From: Parcubacteria group bacterium Greene0714_7
GTDB lineage: Bacteria > Patescibacteriota > Minisyncoccia > Phycocordibacterales > Phycocordibacteraceae
DNA: 63,463 nt
Direction of reading: 5' to 3'
NCBI GenBank assembly: GCA_007378985.1
Contig: VMHB01000004.1
Location: 1,012 to 64,474 of the forward strand
Below the pieces are notes generated by a model. It made no database searches, had not been told where the DNA came from, and saw only the letters and a program-made list of their open reading frames with translations. Shown here one piece after another: positions 8,007-56,325 of this stretch (the first letter of the stretch is position 1; each line of letters starts with the position of its first letter). The position numbers and the translations under genes were made by a program.

Positions 8007-8054
8007 CCCCTCACTATGTATCACTGTAGTACTACAGTGATACATAGTGAGGGG
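8007..8054. repeat. 48-nt perfect palindrome (24-bp arms, no spacer)
   Basis: CCCCTCACTATGTATCACTGTAGT/ACTACAGTGATACATAGTGAGGGG. Lies ~110 nt downstream of the 8167 stop. Confidence 0.85.
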
Positions 8055-28634: not shown

Positions 28635-28987
28635 ACGTATATATGGAAGTCTGAGATTACATCGTTAGCAATAATATGTACATCTATCTTCTTATTCAGA
28701 ATATCCTATTCAAACACTTTGCGTGAGTCACCATTGATGAGCTTGCACATAATGCTCCCGCGTTGCCCACATCTCCAGGGCCGATGTCTATGTACAGATG
28801 TGCGCCCACGCGCACATCTACGCAAAAATAGCGTCAATGAGGCCCGAGAGCGAGCGTTTGTCTTGCACTAGAGTAATATAAAACAAGTACAGTGCCCGTT
28901 CCCTTACCCCTTTAGTTAACTAAAGGAGTTGAGAGATGTTTATAAAGAAAGGAGTAACACAACGTGGCACCATTTCCTCTTTTTGAC

Positions 28988-29029
28988 ATATAGCTCTCTA
29001 TTAGACGGCCGTCTAATAGAGAGCTATAT
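28988..29029. promoter_or_regulatory. Palindrome A3 (42 nt, perfect)
   Basis: ATATAGCTCTCTATTAGACGG/CCGTCTAATAGAGAGCTATAT. Confidence 0.5.
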
Positions 29030-29074
29030 GTAGCAATGCGGATTATCCAATTTCTCACGAGGTATACTGTGACA

Positions 29075-29371: not shown

Positions 29372-29445
29372 GTCGCATTCACACACACCGCAAAGCAACG
29401 AGTGCGCCGGACTCCCCTAACAAAAAGCTACACCCACTCGGAACC

Positions 29446-29487
29446 ATATCGCTCTCTAACAGACGGCCGTCTGTTAGAGAGCGATAT
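29446..29487. promoter_or_regulatory. Palindrome A4 (42 nt, perfect)
   Basis: ATATCGCTCTCTAACAGACGG/CCGTCTGTTAGAGAGCGATAT. Lies between convergent genes, so it may act as a terminator. Confidence 0.45.
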
Positions 29488-29541
29488 GTGAAAGAAAACG
29501 GCAACTTTAAAAAACATCAGATACATTTAAAACTCTCTGCC

Positions 29542-30537
29542 CTAAAGCAACACACGTCTTCCTTCACGGGCGGAAATACGCATAGCCTCCAAAACACTTG
29601 CTTGGCGGATGATACGGTCGTACATTTCTTTAAACTGTTTAGTATTCTGTGCAATAACAGCTTGGCAAAAGAAATCAAAACTAAGGGCGAATTGATTTGC
29701 TGTTGGGATTTCTAAACTCACGAGTGTGTCTTTGGCACCATCGTTGGTTATGAGCTCGACAGTCGGTGCCATCATAGGTGGTATCGCAAATGCGCGATTC
29801 GTGCGCACCATTCCTTTGGAACCCCACACCGAATAGGTATTTTGATAGAGGTGATCGAAACCAAATGACATTAGCGCAGTTCCCTTTTCAAATTCAAGAA
29901 GTGCCGAGCCTTTGATATCAACGCCTGCACCGGCGTTTGAAAGCGTACAAGTAACAGCAACCGGTTCTTGCTGCATAATCTTTCGTGCCATGAAAACCGT
30001 ATAGCAACCTGCATCGTTGAGGGCACCACCCTTCAAGTCCGCACTATAGCGAATATCACCAGACGGGAACGGTGGGAATCCGTACGCACCACTCCACACA
30101 TGTGGTGTGCCGATTTTCCCTTCTGCAATGAGTGATAGAATCGTCGCGTGTTGTGGGTGAAACTCGGGAACGAAATTCTCATACAGTGCAACGCCGTTTT
30201 CTCGACATACATCTACCATACGCTTCGCCGACTCGAGACTATAGGTAATCGACTTCTCGCAGATGATGTGTTTTCCAGACTGCGCCGCCTGTAGTACCCA
30301 CTCTTCCTGAAGTCCAACAGGAAGCGGACTGTATATGACATCAATATCACTACGCACAATCAAGGAATCATAGGTCTCGGCTTCTAATCCATGACGCTCT
30401 GCCCACTCATCTGCCTTACTCTTCTCGCGACTCGCTATCGCAACAAGCCCTACATTTGGTAATGACCTGAATGCTGGTATCGCGTATTTCTCTGCGATGT
30501 TTGCACAACCTAGAATACCGACACGAATTTTTTTCAT
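29542..30537 (-). CDS. Gfo/Idh/MocA-family oxidoreductase (candidate NDP-hexose 3-ketoreductase)
   Basis: MKKIRVGILGCANIAEKYAIPAF plus pathway context. Confidence 0.8.
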   Translation of the reverse strand: MKKIRVGILGCANIAEKYAIPAFRSLPNVGLVAIASREKSKADEWAERHGLEAETYDSLIVRSDIDVIYSPLPVGLQEEWVLQAAQSGKHIICEKSITYSLESAKRMVDVCRENGVALYENFVPEFHPQHATILSLIAEGKIGTPHVWSGAYGFPPFPSGDIRYSADLKGGALNDAGCYTVFMARKIMQQEPVAVTCTLSNAGAGVDIKGSALLEFEKGTALMSFGFDHLYQNTYSVWGSKGMVRTNRAFAIPPMMAPTVELITNDGAKDTLVSLEIPTANQFALSFDFFCQAVIAQNTKQFKEMYDRIIRQASVLEAMRISAREGRRVLL

Positions 30538-30538
30538 A

Positions 30539-30850
30539 CCCCCACACCTTTTATCTCATAAAATGCTTCTTGAAATCCGCCTTTTGAGTTGCCCGAGTGC
30601 TTTCCCGTCTTTTTTGAGAGAAAATTCTCTACCCCTCGCGTCTCGTTCTGAAGTGTAGGACTCATAGTAGCGAAGCTCAAAAGGTCGACGAGGCTTGGTA
30701 GATTTAACCATTCCGCCATTGTGCTCGGAAAATCTTCGACGCAAATCATTTGTCGATCCAACATATAACTTTTCATCTTTGAGGCTTTTAAGTACATATA
30801 CGTAATACATAGAGAATTGATTTGCGTCAATGAGATGAAAGGTGTGGGGG
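30539..30850. mobile_element. 312-nt family-2 TIR element carrying a GIY-YIG gene (13-bp perfect TIR, 5-bp TSD TATGA)
   Basis: Plus-strand TCATA at 30534-30538 and 30851-30855. TIRs are CCCCCACACCTTT and AAAGGTGTGGGGG. Confidence 0.55.
30556..30810 (-). CDS. GIY-YIG nuclease family protein (84 aa)
   Basis: MYYVYVLKSLKDEKLYVGSTNDLRRRFSEHNGG. Confidence 0.85.
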   Translation of the reverse strand: MYYVYVLKSLKDEKLYVGSTNDLRRRFSEHNGGMVKSTKPRRPFELRYYESYTSERDARGREFSLKKDGKALGQLKRRISRSIL

Positions 30851-31513
30851 TCATAGCAAAGCGCATACATTACGCGCGAGAGAATTAACCGTCGTATCAA
30901 CGCGCAAGAGTTTCTTAATCTCGGGGAGTGTGAGCCAAATGTAATCTTCAGTAACAGGCACTTCTTCTGATTCGTCCACCTCCACAAGCATTGAGCGATT
31001 CACCTTATGGAAAAACCGACCACCGTCTTCGACGCCCAAAACTGATGCAATGAGTCTTCCTTTCGTCCCGTCAAAATATTCAGCAAGCCGTGGGCGCTTT
31101 CCCCCATGCGCTTGCGCCAGATTGCCTTCGGAAACCTGACATGCGGGCGATATCTGCACACTGTTGATATTCCCCGGCTCAAATTTTGCATAGAAAAGAT
31201 ACTTTGTGACACCATCTTTCTTTTGCACTAACACGCCTGAAATACCGACCTCTTCCTGTTTCAACATCGGCTGACTCCACGACGGCACTTCCCTGTCCGA
31301 GGCACCTGTTATCTTTACGCCAATAATCGAGAAAAATTTTCCTGACTCATGCGTGATATTTCCACTTACAGGATCTGTTTTCCAACCCTGCACATCATTT
31401 ACTCCGACCGCTTCCACAGTGACTGGGTACGACTCCTGCTTTTCTTTGAGCCACGCGAGAATGGGCTTGATGTCAGTGTCTTCGTTCTTAGAAATGAAAG
31501 GTGTTGGGGTCAT
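30851..31513 (-). CDS. NDP-hexose 2,3-dehydratase-like protein, single-domain (half-size) form
   Basis: SGKFFSIIGV, SWSQPML, GISGVLVQKKDGVTKYLFYAKFEPGN. 220 aa, versus the two-domain enzymes I recall. Confidence 0.55.
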   Translation of the reverse strand: MTPTPFISKNEDTDIKPILAWLKEKQESYPVTVEAVGVNDVQGWKTDPVSGNITHESGKFFSIIGVKITGASDREVPSWSQPMLKQEEVGISGVLVQKKDGVTKYLFYAKFEPGNINSVQISPACQVSEGNLAQAHGGKRPRLAEYFDGTKGRLIASVLGVEDGGRFFHKVNRSMLVEVDESEEVPVTEDYIWLTLPEIKKLLRVDTTVNSLARNVCALL

Positions 31514-32739
31514 ACGATTTCAACGCTAGGGATAGGGATAATGAATTTCGCACCGCGTGCACGCAATTCTTTTTCTTTTTCGAGAATGAAGTCGCGGTAG
31601 TTCCATGCAAGAAGTAGAACATACTCCGGCGTCTCGGTCTTTAGTATATCGGGAGAAACGACTGGAATATGACTCCCTGGTGTAAGGAGTCCAATTTTGT
31701 ACGGAGTTGTATCAGTAACATACTCAATATCATCTTGAGTAAAGCCACAAAAATTAAGAAGAGTGTTGCCCTTGGCTGGCGCGCCGTAAGCGACCACCTT
31801 CTTTTTTTCTCTGCGTATTTGGCGCACGAGCGACACGAGCTTCTCTTTAATTGCTTCTGCATCTTTCTGGAAATCAGCAAATCGTGCGAGTGAATGTAGC
31901 CCTGCTTTCTCTTCCAGCGCGAAAAGTTCGTGCACAGAATTTTCAATCGGTAATCCGGACGCCTTGCGAGCAAAGACACGAATAGACCCACCATGCGTCG
32001 GCATGCGCACTACATTAAATACTTCCATACCAAACCGACCAAATAAGTGTTGCAGAGGCTTCACGCTGTAGTAGCACAAATGCTCGTGATACACCGTATC
32101 AAATTCCCCATGCTCCACGAGGTCTAGCAAATAGTGTGATTCCGATACGAACACGCCGTCATCGGTAAGAAGGTCTTTTACCCCTTGCACAATTTCATCA
32201 AGGTCGTCTATGTGCGCAAAAACATTGTTGGCAGAAATAACCTTCGCCTTGCCATGCATTTCTATTATTCGTTTCGCCATTTCAATAGTAAAGAAGCCAC
32301 TCTCAGTTTCGATTCCTTTTGCGCGCGCAGCTTCGGCAACATTCGCCGATGGCTCAATACCAAGCACGCGATGTGTGCCGACGAAATTTTGTAACAAAAT
32401 GCCATCATTACTGCCAATATCAACAATGAGGTCACCTGGGGCCACATGTTCACTTTTCAAATCATCCGCATACGAACGAAAGTGGTCAACGAGCGGTTTA
32501 GAAGCAGAGGAAAAATACGCATACTCACCGTGAAAAAGTTCGTCTTCCGCAACCACATCGAGGAGTTGCACCAGATTGCAGGTACCGCAAAAATACACAT
32601 CTAGGGGATACCGTTTTTCGTCTTTGAGGTGTTCGGCATCAGTAAAATTATCAACTGGCGGATGCTCGCCAAGCGAGAGAATGCGCGTGAGACTAGAGCC
32701 TTTGCACACACGACAGGTAACATTGCGAAGATGGCTCAT
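31510..32739 (-). CDS. NDP-hexose C-methyltransferase (Zn-ribbon plus SAM-MT plus C-terminal domain)
   Basis: CRVCKG..CGTCNLVQL, LIVDIGSNDG. Start placed at MSHLRNV, 4 nt after the leader ORF stop. Confidence 0.75.
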   Translation of the reverse strand: MSHLRNVTCRVCKGSSLTRILSLGEHPPVDNFTDAEHLKDEKRYPLDVYFCGTCNLVQLLDVVAEDELFHGEYAYFSSASKPLVDHFRSYADDLKSEHVAPGDLIVDIGSNDGILLQNFVGTHRVLGIEPSANVAEAARAKGIETESGFFTIEMAKRIIEMHGKAKVISANNVFAHIDDLDEIVQGVKDLLTDDGVFVSESHYLLDLVEHGEFDTVYHEHLCYYSVKPLQHLFGRFGMEVFNVVRMPTHGGSIRVFARKASGLPIENSVHELFALEEKAGLHSLARFADFQKDAEAIKEKLVSLVRQIRREKKKVVAYGAPAKGNTLLNFCGFTQDDIEYVTDTTPYKIGLLTPGSHIPVVSPDILKTETPEYVLLLAWNYRDFILEKEKELRARGAKFIIPIPSVEIV

Positions 32740-32887: not shown

Positions 32888-33721
32888 TTATGCCTTCCAT
32901 TCCTCGGACACATACTCGGCAAGTGCCTCTTGCCACGGTCGGAGAGTTATCCGTTTTGAGGAAATAGATTCGTTTGTTGGAAGCGTTGTGCTGGATGCGA
33001 AGTAACTTCGATCGACAGCACGCACGTGTGCGTCTGGCTTTACGTGGGTAGCCATTGCAGTAGCGAGGTCAAAGCGCGTAGCGGTACCAGCATTTGCAAT
33101 GTGAAATATGCCCCGCTCGCCTTTTTCGAGCAGGTCTTTAATCGTTGCAACAAAATCTTTCCCGTATGTTGGCGAACCGTGCACATCGTAGAGAGCGGTG
33201 ACCTCTGTGCCCGACTGCAATTGTTTTAGGACTTTGCCGTAAAATTTATTGTCTCGATCAACTCCCCCGCCAAATACCCACGCGGTGCGAGCGATGATGT
33301 ACGACTCTACAAGTGATGCGACGATGAGCTCACTGATATATTTAGTGCGACCGTAGTGCGTCTGTGGATCTGGCGCGTCATCTTCAGTGTACGGACCTTT
33401 TTTGTGTCCGTCGAAAACACGCGAACTCGAAGCGAGAACCATGGTCGCGCCAACTGATGTGGCAGCTTGCGCCACATTGTAGGTACCGCGCACATTAAGC
33501 TCGTAGGCATACAGGGGATCCTGTTCTGTTTTCATCATGTCGGTTGCGCCTGCGAGGTGAATAATAGCGCTTGGATTGTTTTTTTTGACGAACTCCATGA
33601 CTGCATCTGCATCAAGAATATCGAGTGTCGTGTGGTCAGGACGATAACCGAAATCCACATACGAACCAATCATTCCGCCGGCACCAATGGTAAGAACTTT
33701 TTCGAAATCAAAAGAGTTCAT
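32888..33721 (-). CDS. NAD(P)-dependent sugar reductase/epimerase (RmlD-like, candidate 4-ketoreductase)
   Basis: VLTIGAGGMIGSY, YGRTKYISE. Confidence 0.7.
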   Translation of the reverse strand: MNSFDFEKVLTIGAGGMIGSYVDFGYRPDHTTLDILDADAVMEFVKKNNPSAIIHLAGATDMMKTEQDPLYAYELNVRGTYNVAQAATSVGATMVLASSSRVFDGHKKGPYTEDDAPDPQTHYGRTKYISELIVASLVESYIIARTAWVFGGGVDRDNKFYGKVLKQLQSGTEVTALYDVHGSPTYGKDFVATIKDLLEKGERGIFHIANAGTATRFDLATAMATHVKPDAHVRAVDRSYFASSTTLPTNESISSKRITLRPWQEALAEYVSEEWKA

Positions 33722-33861
33722 ACCCCCACACTAATACTGCTGTAATTCTTGCCGAACAGACTCCAGCGACCAGTGGAGTTTTCGTACCCTAAAATAACTT
33801 TTCTAATTCTCTTGTATGTATTCATAATCTGAGGCAACAGCAGTATTAGTGTAGGGGTCAT
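33718..33861 (-). CDS. 47-codon bridge ORF through the element (MTPTLILLLPQIMNTYKRIRKVILGYENSTGRWSLFGKNYSSISVGV)
   Basis: Its ATG overlaps the rmlA stop (ATGA). Its TGA overlaps the reductase ATG (ATGA). Confidence 0.4.
   Translation of the reverse strand: MTPTLILLLPQIMNTYKRIRKVILGYENSTGRWSLFGKNYSSISVGV
33723..33857. mobile_element. 135-nt family-2 TIR element (20-nt TIR, 5-bp TSD TATGA)
   Basis: Plus-strand TCATA at 33718-33722 and 33858-33862. TIRs are CCCCCACACTAATACTGCTG and CAGCAGTATTAGTGTAGGGG. Confidence 0.55.
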
Positions 33862-34574
33862 ACAGCACGCTTCGCGACCTCATGTGCGACACGGAGCAAA
33901 GATTCGAATGTACCCGCGTCCGACCACAAACCTTTAATAATTCCGTAGGAGAGCTTTCCTTTCTTGATATAGGCGTTGTTGGCGTCCGTAATTTCCAACT
34001 CACTTCGACCTGAAGGCTTCAGCGTTTTTATGATGGAAAAAATATCGTTGTCATATAGGTAGAAACCAGTTTGGGCAAATTTTGATTTTGGTTTCTTTGG
34101 TTTTTCTTCAATCTTCACTACCCTCTTACCTGCTGTATCAAACACGGGCACACCAAAACGGTGCGAGTCATTCATTGCCTTAAAAAATACTTTCGCACCA
34201 CCGTTGAAAGAAGCAACATCTTTTGCAAAATCTTGTTCAAATATATTGTCACCCAGAATGACAGCAATTGGGCCTCCGTCGGAGAAATCTTCCGCGTAGC
34301 GTAGCGCGTCGGCGATACCTCCGTTGTTTTTGTCTTGCAACGCATACGAGAGCTTGACACCGAACTCTCTGCCCGAGCCGAGGAATTGCATAAAGTGGCC
34401 CGCATGCTCGCGTCCAGTTACTATCATGATATCGGTAATCCCTGAGCGCTTCAGCGTCTCCAGAGGGTAGAGAATCATTGGTTTGTTGTATACAGGAAGG
34501 AGGTGCTTATTTGTAATAAGCGTCAAAGGGCGCAAGCGTGTGCCGAGTCCTCCTGCAAGAATAACGCCTTTCAT
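33858..34574 (-). CDS. rmlA: Glucose-1-phosphate thymidylyltransferase
   Basis: MKGVILAGGLGTRLRPLT. Confidence 0.9.
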   Translation of the reverse strand: MKGVILAGGLGTRLRPLTLITNKHLLPVYNKPMILYPLETLKRSGITDIMIVTGREHAGHFMQFLGSGREFGVKLSYALQDKNNGGIADALRYAEDFSDGGPIAVILGDNIFEQDFAKDVASFNGGAKVFFKAMNDSHRFGVPVFDTAGKRVVKIEEKPKKPKSKFAQTGFYLYDNDIFSIIKTLKPSGRSELEITDANNAYIKKGKLSYGIIKGLWSDAGTFESLLRVAHEVAKRAV

Positions 34575-34575
34575 A

Positions 34576-35660
34576 TTATTTTTTGTTTTTATCTTTGTGC
34601 CCTTCCCACAAATCAATGTGCGGGTTGAATACACCAGTCTTACGGCGAACCCTTTCTATCCACTTCCTATTTTGAGTGTACCACTCTACCGTATCGGCGA
34701 AAGCCTGCTCAAAGCGGTACTCTGGTTTCCAGCCAAAGTCTTTCATAATGAGCGACGCGTCAATGGCATACCTACGGTCGTGCCCTTACCTTTACCAAAA
34801 TATTTCAAGATACGATCAGCAATTTCACGATTATTCATTTCATTGTCCGCACCGATGTTATACACCGCTCCTGGCTTTCCATTAAGGAGGCAAAGCTCAA
34901 GCGCCCTGGAATGATCTAGTACATACACCCAGTCACGCACATGATTACCATCGCCATACAAAGGAAGTGTCTTTCCCTCAAGCATGCGGAGTACAAAAAA
35001 CGGAATGAGTTTTTCTGGATACTGGCGCGGGCCGTAGTTATTGGAGCAATGCGTTACGATAACTGGAACGCCCCATGTGTTGTGATAAGCACGGCATAGC
35101 ATATCGCCTCCAGCTTTCGTTGCGGCATACGGCACATTCGGCGCAAACGCCGTTTGCTCAGAAAATTTATCTTCAGAATCCAGTGCAAGCGAACCATACA
35201 CCTCATCAGTGGAAACCTGTACGAACGATTGCACTGTACCTGCCACCTTGACGGCTTCAAGCAAATTGAATACACCAACGATGTTGGTATTAATAAATTC
35301 CAGTGAGCCGACATGGATACTTCGATCAACATGCGTCTCGGCTGCGAAATTTATGACGTAGTCGGGTTGGTATTTCTTAAATACAGCAGTGACTTTCTTT
35401 TGGTCAGCTATGTCACCTTTCACAAATGTATAGCGTGCATCTTTTACAAAATCTCGCACATTGTCCGTATTCCCGGAATAGGTAAGTTTATCAAAGTTGA
35501 TGATTCGCACCTTGGGATATTTTTCAAAGATATGATGAATGAAGTTCGATCCAATGAATCCCGCCCCACCGCACACGAGCATGGTTTTTCCATTCAGTGT
35601 TGGAATGACACTGTGCTTTAAAGGGCTCTTTTTTCTGGGTTTTTTTATCGTGGTTGCCAT
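34576..35660 (-). pseudogene. rmlB: dTDP-glucose 4,6-dehydratase interrupted by a 1-nt frameshift at 34783-34785
   Basis: MLVCGGAGFIGSNF, YAATKAGGD. The conserved C-terminus HDRRYAIDASLIMKDFGWKPEY..VEWY is intact in the adjacent frame. Confidence 0.8.
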
Positions 35661-35699
35661 AGGTGCAAAGTGCGTTCAGAAAATAAAAATAATGACTCA

Positions 35700-51907: not shown

Positions 51908-51994
51908 GAAACTAGTGTATAGCGTTTAGCGTTGAGGGTCTAGCGAAGACACAAATATACAAAGAGACTAAGTGGCTAAATGATTAAATAGAGA

Positions 51995-52036
51995 CGATAT
52001 AGTTTAATCTAACGATCGTTAGATTAAACTATATCG
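51995..52036. promoter_or_regulatory. Palindrome B1 (42 nt, perfect)
   Basis: CGATATAGTTTAATCTAACGA/TCGTTAGATTAAACTATATCG. Lies 88 nt upstream of the ATG at 51907. Confidence 0.5.
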
Positions 52037-52070
52037 ATTTTTCTCTCTATCTTGGTGAAACCCTTGAAGA

Positions 52071-52652: not shown

Positions 52653-52737
52653 ATGCGATTTAGCGAAATCGTGTCGCGCACCGTCTCTTAAGACGCGACC
52701 CGAAAAAAAATAATGTAGTAAAATTCTTAAATAATAA

Positions 52738-52779
52738 CGATATAGTTTAATCTAACGATCGTTAAATTATACTATATCG
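52738..52779. promoter_or_regulatory. Palindrome B2 (42 nt, 2 mismatches)
   Basis: Lies 86 nt upstream of the regulator ATG at 52652. 39 nt are identical to B3. Confidence 0.5.
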
Positions 52780-52825
52780 TAAGAATATAAGGAATATAGT
52801 GCAAAACCAGTTATACCCGAGAACA

Positions 52826-53251
52826 CTAGTTCTTTTTTCGAAGAGCGGTAGTTTTCCAAACAATAATTCCTAAACTAATCACCGCAAAAACCCCTCCCAT
52901 AAACCACGCAGTATCCTCTCTCACAAATGAATAGAGTGGCATCCACGAGTTACTTGTGGTGGGAGTAATGGTAATAACAAGTATCGAGAAAGGAACCCAC
53001 CACAACGCAAATTTGAACCAGGAACTAAAGGCCTTGGGAAATAGTATGAGAATAAAAGTGATAGGTAACGTAAATAAAGCAAAGATAAATAATGGGACAC
53101 CGACAATTTCTATACTATCGTCAGCACAGCCAATATAATTGGAAAATTGATATGTTCTGATACACAGACCAAAAACTAGCGGATGACTAAAAATGTAGCC
53201 AGCAACAGTAGCCAGCGATGCAAATAAAAATCCAATTACAGAATGTTTCAT
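52826..53251 (-). CDS. Small polytopic membrane protein
   Basis: 141 aa with four hydrophobic segments. Confidence 0.5.
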   Translation of the reverse strand: MKHSVIGFLFASLATVAGYIFSHPLVFGLCIRTYQFSNYIGCADDSIEIVGVPLFIFALFTLPITFILILFPKAFSSWFKFALWWVPFSILVITITPTTSNSWMPLYSFVREDTAWFMGGVFAVISLGIIVWKTTALRKKN

Positions 53252-56283: not shown

Positions 56284-56325
56284 CGATATAGTTTAATCTA
56301 ACGATCGTTAAATTATACTATACAA
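56284..56325. promoter_or_regulatory. Palindrome B3 (copy of B2, outer 3' end degenerate)
   Basis: Lies 65 nt upstream of the ATG at 56219. Confidence 0.5.

Follow-up and report, generated by a model that had tools for sequence, protein, structure and literature searches.

Small Mobile Elements Comparable to the Locus

Correia elements of Neisseria and other bacterial MITEs (miniature inverted-repeat transposable elements) measure about 100–150 bp, carry terminal inverted repeats (TIRs) and a short target duplication, and lie in intergenic regions, where they are co-transcribed, with arms that pair into an RNA helix. The Correia elements themselves have 26-bp arms and a TA duplication, and their mobilizing enzyme is not a GIY-YIG nuclease. 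Rickettsia palindromic elements (RPE) are small, palindromic and tolerated in expressed regions, with the reading frame preserved. IS200/IS605 and REP/RAYT elements depend on a HUH (Y1) tyrosine transposase and possess neither terminal inverted repeats nor a target duplication. The present analysis concerns E1, a 135-nt insert, and its larger sister E2, which encodes a GIY-YIG nuclease; both are read on the minus strand of a 63,463-nt stretch of Parcubacteria group bacterium Greene0714_7 (contig VMHB01000004.1, positions 1,012 to 64,474), hereafter called the window.

In size, inverted ends, duplication and predicted helix, E1 fits the description of Correia elements and MITEs, but its lineage differs, as Correia elements also occur outside stop/start overlaps and are not described as carrying a read-through frame. 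Similarity to RPE is seen in an in-frame footprint that now forms the N terminus of a dehydratase; unlike RPE, which insert into coding sequences and are translated with the host protein, E1 is located between two genes and has a separate bridge open reading frame (ORF). With IS200/IS605 and REP/RAYT the elements share a very small size, a presumed recognition of hairpins in single-stranded DNA (ssDNA) and lineage-specific 4–5-nt words (TTAT, TTGA, TTTA, CAAG, and TATGA), while they differ from both in having a GIY-YIG nuclease as their only protein and in the presence of TIRs and flanking repeats.

The closest published system, to the extent that its main text describes it, is that of the Ssn nucleases (GIY-YIG clade cd10448; Chenal et al., 2025, Nat Commun, PMC11893778), 94-aa single-domain GIY-YIG proteins whose cleavage is restricted to ssDNA adjoining a hairpin repeat. 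According to the same text, the ssn genes are flanked on both sides by hairpin-forming repeats (NTS/SRM), gene-less repeats are amplified around surface genes, and the IS-like layout is compared to IS200/IS605 and REP/RAYT, a mobile origin being only hypothesized (PMC11893778). Like Ssn as described there, E2 encodes a single-domain GIY-YIG protein (84 aa vs. about 90 aa) from a gene located between hairpin-capable repeats, and gene-less copies of its family are dispersed, comprising E1, a bare hairpin (12455–12489), a footprint (31486–31514) and miniatures of 81 and 84 nt in relatives. Unlike the published arrangement, in which the gene lies between two complete hairpins, the E2 gene is located inside one long hairpin with one arm on each side. 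Target duplications, empty-site comparisons and miniature derivatives do not figure in the main text on Ssn, from which the words Patescibacteria and Candidatus are likewise absent; the elements described here have duplicated flanks, empty sites, miniatures and footprints, and their hosts are Patescibacteria. The comparison is with the published description and the SRM motif; the motif, HGTCWYN(0-2)YYVSBRHN(0-5)WNVSBRGN(0-2)RNCYNB, has no matches on either strand of the window.

The E1 Insert in an Operon Junction

E1, located in the TATGA overlap between an rmlA-like gene and an RmlD-like reductase gene of a Paceibacteria-like genome (Table 1), is a miniature transposable element of the non-autonomous kind, flanked by a target duplication of 5 bp (or 4 bp), and its origin by insertion of a mobile element is close to certain. 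On the minus strand, window positions 33862–33718 read gctgTATGA, CCCCTACACTAATACTGCTG, 95 nt, CAGCAGTATTAGTGTGGGGG, and TATGAactc. A preliminary description of this DNA had proposed 20-nt inverted ends with one G.U position, a 5-bp TATGA repeat and a 135-nt insert, all of which proved correct to the base. Also present as described there are the left TATGA supplying the rmlA stop and a new ATG, the right TATGA supplying a TGA and the reductase ATG, and the 47-codon ORF bridging them from ATG 33861. The upstream ORF, called rmlA, encodes a glucose-1-phosphate thymidylyltransferase-like NTP transferase (Pfam) and stops on the left TGA; the downstream ORF encodes an RmlD-family reductase (Pfam) and begins on the right ATG. 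The insert itself (33723–33857) has no Pfam match. Its arms are complementary at 19 of 20 positions, with one mismatch (T opposite G), and extend to 22 nt with the adjoining A and T included. With up to three mismatches allowed, the arm 20-mer matches only the two arm sites in 63 kb (0.00 expected from 100 shuffles).

The insertion is documented by relatives, that is, contigs encoding the closest relatives of the reductase, found by a protein search with the latter; the window itself corresponds to the ENA metagenome contig ERZ27284376 k119_298811. The empty site that had been predicted for orthologous rmlA junctions, gctgTATGAactc, is present exactly in two of these contigs, L086 (reductase 98% identical) and L087 (92%), where the junction reads GCGAAGCG[C/T]GCTG-TATGA-ACTCTTTTGATTTCG, with a single TATGA and no insert. 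Contigs L118–L120 are also empty, with the variant site gctcTATGAaccc. The interpretation as a TIR element inserted into an ATGA junction with a target duplication is thus upheld, and it is further borne out by sister elements at the same site and in neighboring TATGA junctions. Protein-level conservation of the 47-aa peptide in relatives, which had been named as a result that would speak against insertion, was not observed: the relatives show presence or absence of the insert, and a search of 5.8 billion protein clusters gave no homologue of the peptide, which also lacks a Pfam match. Comparison of filled and empty sites shows that the target duplication restores both the upstream TGA and the downstream ATG.

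Logan contigs of SRR8863435 break exactly at the E1 edges, L005 ending with GCTGTATGA and L002 beginning with GTATGAACTC (GTATGA...). At a simple repeat, the flank would continue for 30 nt inside the element; the breaks are therefore read as a mixture of alleles, and their positions would be those expected of a k=31 graph in which filled and empty alleles coexist.

The E1 sequence alone also allows an alternative parse with a 3-bp repeat (ATG) and 22-nt arms, and the empty site is identical under a 3-, 4-, or 5-bp repeat. The true stagger of the duplication could be 4 (ATGA) or 5 (TATGA), because most family members elsewhere have 4-bp repeats. As in a MITE, terminal inverted repeats and a target duplication with a single-copy empty site are combined in E1 with a small size and the lack of a transposase gene; several copies per genome, another MITE property, were not found for E1 in the window, IMG/VR, GTDB representatives or JGI metagenomes, while a sister 81-nt miniature has two copies in one genome. 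The arm helix, placed by the preliminary description 1 nt from the downstream ATG, is predicted there both as RNA (minimum free energy of −58 vs. −42 kcal/mol in shuffles, z = −4.0) and as ssDNA (z = −5.5). Across the entire window, neither an Rfam family (gathering thresholds) nor a tRNA was matched.

Table 1. Location of the E1 and E2 features in the window and states of the three operon junctions among relatives
Feature	Position	Strand	Description
Left TATGA repeat of E1	33858–33862	minus	TGA 33860–33858 is the rmlA-like stop; ATG 33861–33859 is the bridge ORF start
Left terminal inverted repeat of E1	33838–33857	minus	CCCCTACACTAATACTGCTG; first 9–10 nt common to the GIY-YIG element family
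E1 interior, 95 nt	33743–33837	minus	Small internal hairpin; no detectable coding remnant
Right terminal inverted repeat of E1	33723–33742	minus	CAGCAGTATTAGTGTGGGGG; ends 1 nt before the reductase ATG
Right TATGA repeat of E1	33718–33722	minus	ATG 33721–33719 is the RmlD-like reductase start; TGA 33720–33718 is the bridge stop
Bridge ORF, 47 sense codons	33718–33861	minus	MTPTLILLLPQIMNTYKRIRKVILGYENSTGRWSLFGKNYSSISVGV; begins on the ATG in the rmlA stop overlap and ends on the TGA in the reductase start overlap
Sister element E2 including both TATGA repeats (30855–30851, 30538–30534)	30534–30855	minus	Arms CCCCCACACCTTTCATCTCAT / ATGAGATAAAAGGTGTGGGGG
84-aa GIY-YIG nuclease ORF in E2	30556–30810	minus	PF01541, E=1.6e-16, residues 1–71; stop codon inside the right arm
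E2-type footprint, methyltransferase/dehydratase junction	31486–31514	minus	TATGA + 19-nt left arm CCCCAACACCTTTCATTTC + TAAGA (mutated second repeat)
Bare hairpin of two E2-type arms, 3-nt loop	12451–12493		CCCCCACACCTTTTCA gaa TGAAAAGGTGTGGGGG, 12455–12489; flanks TATA/TATA
Junction A (methyltransferase/dehydratase)			Empty; full element; same 81-nt miniature as at junction C; 19-nt footprint
Junction B (dehydratase/oxidoreductase)			Empty; full element; 9-nt duplication
Junction C (rmlA/reductase)			Empty; E1, 135 nt; 81-nt miniature; 84-nt miniature (more distant relative); full GIY-YIG element; 20/21-nt left-arm footprint

E2 and the GIY-YIG Element Family

About 3 kb from E1, a scan for inverted repeats revealed the pair 30538–30559 / 30830–30851, with the outer bases of E1. 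The E2 insert proper comprises 312 nt (30850–30539) and shares with E1 the CCCCCACAC...GTGTGGGGG ends and the TATGA repeat, the minus strand reading ttgcTATGA, CCCCCACACCTTTCATCTCAT ... ATGAGATAAAAGGTGTGGGGG, TATGAaaaaaa. It occupies an ATGA junction at which an NDP-hexose 2,3-dehydratase gene stops and a GFO/IDH/MocA oxidoreductase gene starts, and L086 and L006/L089 have the corresponding empty site, CTATGAAAAAAA. In the E2 lineage the full-length form is about 311–317 nt long, with two inverted ends of about 20 nt, CCCCCACAC(C/T)...GTGTGGGGG, around a single 84-aa GIY-YIG gene. Between the nuclease genes of E2 and of the L006 copy, 16 synonymous and 7 nonsynonymous nucleotide differences were counted, a pattern that shows purifying selection on the gene and speaks for a functional nuclease.

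E1 and E2, together with the wider family, have in common only the outer 9–10 nt (CCCC[C/T]ACAC) and TATGA, and E1 very probably belongs to this GIY-YIG-associated family; a gene-bearing partner with the full 20-nt E1 arm was not found. The possibility that E1 is an internal-deletion derivative of E2 was rejected, as a six-frame hmmsearch of E1 with a profile of 47 GIY-YIG proteins returned only noise, in the wrong order, and no GIY-YIG remnant. The bare hairpin of two E2-type arms at 12455–12489 is probably a minimal family member.

A search of GTDB species representatives with the 84-aa protein yielded 80 loci, with 423 candidate stretches encoding a relative, and nearly all of the 80 loci belong to metagenome-assembled genomes of Patescibacteria. 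Motif-anchored arms, CCCC.ACAC(C/T)...GTGTGGGG, bracket the GIY-YIG ORF in 47/80 loci, with total lengths of 281–337 nt, and in 47/47 they enclose this ORF and nothing else. An exact 4-bp flanking repeat was found in 23 of these 47 loci and a 5-bp repeat in 2. The repeats are lineage-typical words: TTAT, often within TTATCCACA, TTGA within TTGACA/T, TTTA, and CAAG. All motif-anchored loci are intergenic and occur in every orientation relative to their neighbors. In the E2 lineage, an unbiased JGI scan for the arm found TATGA flanking every genuine copy; copies with identifiable flanking genes are all located in junctions of the dTDP-sugar operon, and the gene-bearing ones are all co-oriented with the host genes. 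Target determinants beyond TATGA were not seen in the window, where the unoccupied TATGA overlaps look alike.

In other Patescibacteria lineages, the TTAT of TTATCCACA, a perfect DnaA-box-like nonamer, is occupied in L009, L011, L012, L018, and L024, and in reverse orientation in L007, L010, L016, and L031, while the TTGA of TTGAC(A/T), resembling a −35 box, is occupied in L013, L061, and L071. Unoccupied TATGA stop/start overlaps between long ORFs were noted on the minus strand of the window at 53251, 26502, 21431, and possibly 22861.

The GIY-YIG protein has no match above cut-off in NCBIfam, and its nearest PDB sequences are the UPF0213 proteins 1zg2 (E=2e-5) and 1ywl. This element family of Patescibacteria is previously undescribed; searches of the literature for GIY-YIG in combination with MITEs, TIRs, target duplication or Patescibacteria revealed no description of such elements.

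Polymorphic Junctions Among Relatives

Junction states (Table 1) were compared among relatives whose reductases cluster at ≥90% identity. Besides the empty and E1-filled states, junction C holds an 81-nt miniature in L090, L091, and L100, an 84-nt miniature in L104, the full GIY-YIG element in L098, L114, and L115–L117, and a left-arm footprint of 20/21 nt in L089, L092, and L093. Junction A is empty in L086 and contains the full element in L006/L089, the 81-nt miniature in L090 and an unmutated footprint in L092/L093. Both the 81- and the 84-nt miniatures are plain internal deletions of the full element. Since one genome (L090) carries the 81-nt miniature at two junctions, gene-less derivatives evidently move.

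In the window, 24 nt of the junction A footprint are in frame, and the dehydratase now begins with MTPTPFIS from the repeat-derived ATG. Its own ATG has become AAG, and the gene is open only from the repeat-derived ATG through the left-arm remnant. Because the original start is lost and the next canonical one would cut the Pfam domain, the dehydratase most plausibly starts at the repeat-derived ATG, which would mean that the left ATG of an insert is used.

The remnants at junction C (L089, L092, L093) and junction A (L092, L093 and the window) keep the full 19–21-nt left arm and both TATGA copies and lack the loop and the right arm. Such independent left-arm remnants suggest a reproducible excision chemistry, with cuts at both ends of the right arm plus loop. 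A different remnant is present at junction A of L110 (JGI C687J35174_10130497), where the left arm, the spacer and the first two nuclease codons, ATG TAT, are joined directly to dehydratase codon 2. At junction B, an in-frame 9-nt duplication, TATGAAAAA-TATGAAAAAA, is located at the dehydratase/oxidoreductase overlap in L092, L093, L118, and L119; it may be the minimal footprint of a former insertion.

The Bridge Reading Frame

Taken by itself, E1 offers weak evidence for a bridge kept open: its bridge frame is open in 7.5% of interior shuffles, a value to be multiplied by a further 1/3 for phase. The equivalent bridge of the E2 lineage is read in the +1 frame relative to the nuclease ORF and terminates at the right-hand TGA; in E2 itself it spans 106 codons, from ATG 30854 to TGA 30534. 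This frame contains no stops in 7/7 diverged copies (85–91% nucleotide identity), while the same frame of other family members contains 1–8 stops in 46/46. Given the protein and the codon usage of the window, a stop-free +1 frame has P=0.023; for any one diverged copy to remain open if synonymous changes were random, P=0.19–0.37. As the peptide of the bridge frame varies freely between sister elements, it is openness and not sequence that is conserved. An in-phase ATG-to-TGA bridge is found in E1 and in the 81-, 84-, and 312-nt forms. On these data, selection on the bridge frame is somewhat better favored than its absence, and the 47-aa product itself would be a by-product.

In the copies whose left ATG is not in phase, the short left ORF ends with a TAA located 7 nt beyond the start of an ATG in the +1 frame, both lying within the 10-nt string ATGTGCTTAA. 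A two-step relay in these copies can be proposed as a speculation.

Proposed Mobilization and Alternative Explanations

The explanation that we regard as best, and hold with good confidence, is that E1 is a miniature of a family of GIY-YIG elements that in this lineage inhabit TATGA overlaps. The mobilizing enzyme may well be the GIY-YIG nuclease, toward which the balance leans slightly. It would recognize the element ends, probably as an ssDNA hairpin, as Ssn nucleases do, and would mobilize gene-less derivatives such as E1 in trans via the common terminal 9–10 nt. Insertions would survive only at TATGA stop/start overlaps, because no coding sequence is lost there. Polarity on the downstream gene could be lowered in that the left ATG still receives terminating ribosomes, the in-phase open frame carries them through the element, melting the arm helix, as far as the TGA that overlaps the next start, where they stop.

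Several observations weigh against this scheme or parts of it. To our knowledge, hydrolytic GIY-YIG enzymes do not join DNA, and we know of no GIY-YIG cutter that leaves a 4–5-bp duplication. The link of the nuclease to mobility is drawn from the association of gene and arms, so a transposase encoded elsewhere would be an alternative. The E1 interior is unrelated to the GIY-YIG element, and for this reason the assignment of E1 to the family rests on the 9–10 terminal nt, the identical repeat and the common site. Exact scans of IMG/VR, GTDB species representatives and JGI metagenomes with the 20-nt E1 arm gave 0 matches each, and a second E1 copy was found neither there nor in the rest of the window; the preliminary description had missed this, as well as the GIY-YIG-encoding sister E2 located 3 kb away. 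Of the TATGA stop/start overlaps in the window, at least three others stand empty, so the elements are clustered in a 4-kb sugar-operon segment rather than occupying every possible target. The left ATG is out of phase in the 311-nt (L006, L107) and 317-nt (L094) copies and in a 20-nt footprint (L092), and therefore the bridge is not obligatory. The preliminary claim that it is kept open is supported indirectly, by the stop-free frame of 7/7 sister copies (vs. 0/46 others) and by all three miniatures being in phase; it does not extend to these copies and this footprint. Counting independent events by phase (2:0:1 mod 3; about 4:2:2) gave no significant result, and these counts were not used as evidence.

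Alternatively, the ends and the duplication could be the work of a conventional DDE-type transposase located elsewhere, with the GIY-YIG gene as a passenger or an addiction/homing module and E1 as an IS-derived MITE. TIRs with a 4–5-bp duplication are the classic DDE signature, E1 is devoid of any gene, and strand transfer is not known for GIY-YIG enzymes, which are hydrolases. However, the arm pair encloses only the GIY-YIG ORF, over about 280–340 nt, in all 47 loci, which come from many Patescibacteria; no locus examined, among loci rather than whole genomes, has arms around a transposase; and the arms covary with the nuclease lineage. We consider this explanation unlikely. An origin from Tn3 or IS1380, prompted by the 5-bp duplication and the G/C-run termini, is not supported in view of the lack of a transposase within the arms and an end polarity opposite to that of Tn3. 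Tn3-family ends are about 38 bp long, begin with 5'-GGGG, and are associated with a DDE transposase and a 5-bp duplication, whereas the present elements have 5' CCCC ends, arms of about 20 nt and no transposase within the arms in 47 loci. Another scenario, in our view quite improbable, does without transposition: a GIY-YIG homing endonuclease cuts TATGA junctions of the operon, and recombination copies its cassette into them when strains exchange DNA, E1 being a decayed cassette. Free-standing GIY-YIG homing genes are known in phages, presence or absence differs among near-identical strains, and the lineage copies with identifiable flanks are all in one dTDP-sugar operon, as if spread needed homologous flanks. 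Against this, the same element type occurs in at least three junctions with unrelated flanks, the identical 81-nt deletion derivative is found at two junctions of one genome, and other lineages occupy many unrelated intergenic sites. Homing, moreover, neither makes flanking direct repeats nor needs inverted ends, and a GIY-YIG homing endonuclease combines the nuclease domain with a DNA-binding extension and has one cognate site without TIRs or duplication; the protein found here is an 84-aa single domain lacking such an extension, and TIRs and repeats are present.

Two further explanations concern the host rather than mobility. The helix could be a regulatory RNA structure of the host (an attenuator, an RNase III site or a translational gate), with mobility as incidental history. 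It is predicted with 22 bp, ends at the downstream AUG and has z = −4, and RNase III processes the hairpins of co-transcribed MITEs, Correia elements among them; but the closest relatives keep a plain ATGA overlap without the helix, other relatives have unrelated interiors or a one-armed footprint unable to form it, and no Rfam family matches, so little weight is given to this idea. That the 47-codon ORF encodes a functional small protein is hardly credible, although it has an ATG, an open frame and a placement suited for translational coupling. This candidate was rejected after the homology search provided no candidate; in addition, the ORF is absent from relatives whose flanking genes are 92–98% identical, its first and last residues are the translated inverted ends, and the equivalent sister frames diverge freely yet stay open.

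If the E1/E2 family is indeed mobilized by its own nuclease, it might constitute a new class of autonomous elements of about 312 bp, in which an 84-aa GIY-YIG nuclease acts on its own ends and the lineages are tuned to 4–5-nt words; the TATGA lineage, with a stop-free bridge in operon overlaps, would be nearly invisible to the host, and E1 would be a gene-less rider. We advance this extension tentatively, as somewhat short of an even chance. Were it true, these elements would be smaller than any known insertion sequence. With the nuclease as the mobility enzyme, they would be the smallest self-contained mobile element described and would add a fifth chemistry, GIY-YIG hydrolysis, to prokaryotic transposition, and the Ssn family would gain a biological rationale that was only hypothesized in the 2025 paper. 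Targeting of TATGA shows a way for a selfish element to persist in a streamlined genome, inside an operon with tight coupling, and leave every gene intact: the stop and the start are rebuilt by the duplication, and the coupling possibly by the open in-phase frame. The near-identical strains represent a natural allelic series (empty, full, miniature, and footprint) and provide material for study of excision and insertion chemistry. For genome annotation, the elements account for odd N-terminal extensions (MTPTPFIS...) and spurious small ORFs in operons of Patescibacteria.

Other Repeats and Variants in the Window

Additional palindromes were observed in the window. A perfect 48-nt palindrome at 8007–8054, CCCCTCACTATGTATCACTGTAGT|ACTACAGTGATACATAGTGAGGGG, has CCCC/GGGG ends that recall the element family and is without a clear flanking repeat. 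Near-perfect palindromes of about 44 nt (CATATAGCTCTCTATTAGACGGCCGTCTAATAGAGAGCTATATG), unrelated in sequence to the CCCCCACAC elements, occupy intergenic positions at 12523–12565, 13121–13163, 28982–29030, and 29445–29493. A second palindrome family (CGATATAGTTTAATCTAACGATCGTTAGATTAAACTATATCG) is represented by three copies, at 51994–52041, 52733–52780, and 56287–56322.

Inside the rmlB-like gene (34576–35691, minus strand), 31 nt, AGATATGATTGAATTTGTTGCCGAAAGGCCT, are missing at 34785/34786. They are present in an otherwise identical ENA contig (L001, 4906–4936) and in L089 and L092. The loss splits the dTDP-glucose 4,6-dehydratase ORF by a frameshift and may be a real variant or an assembly difference.

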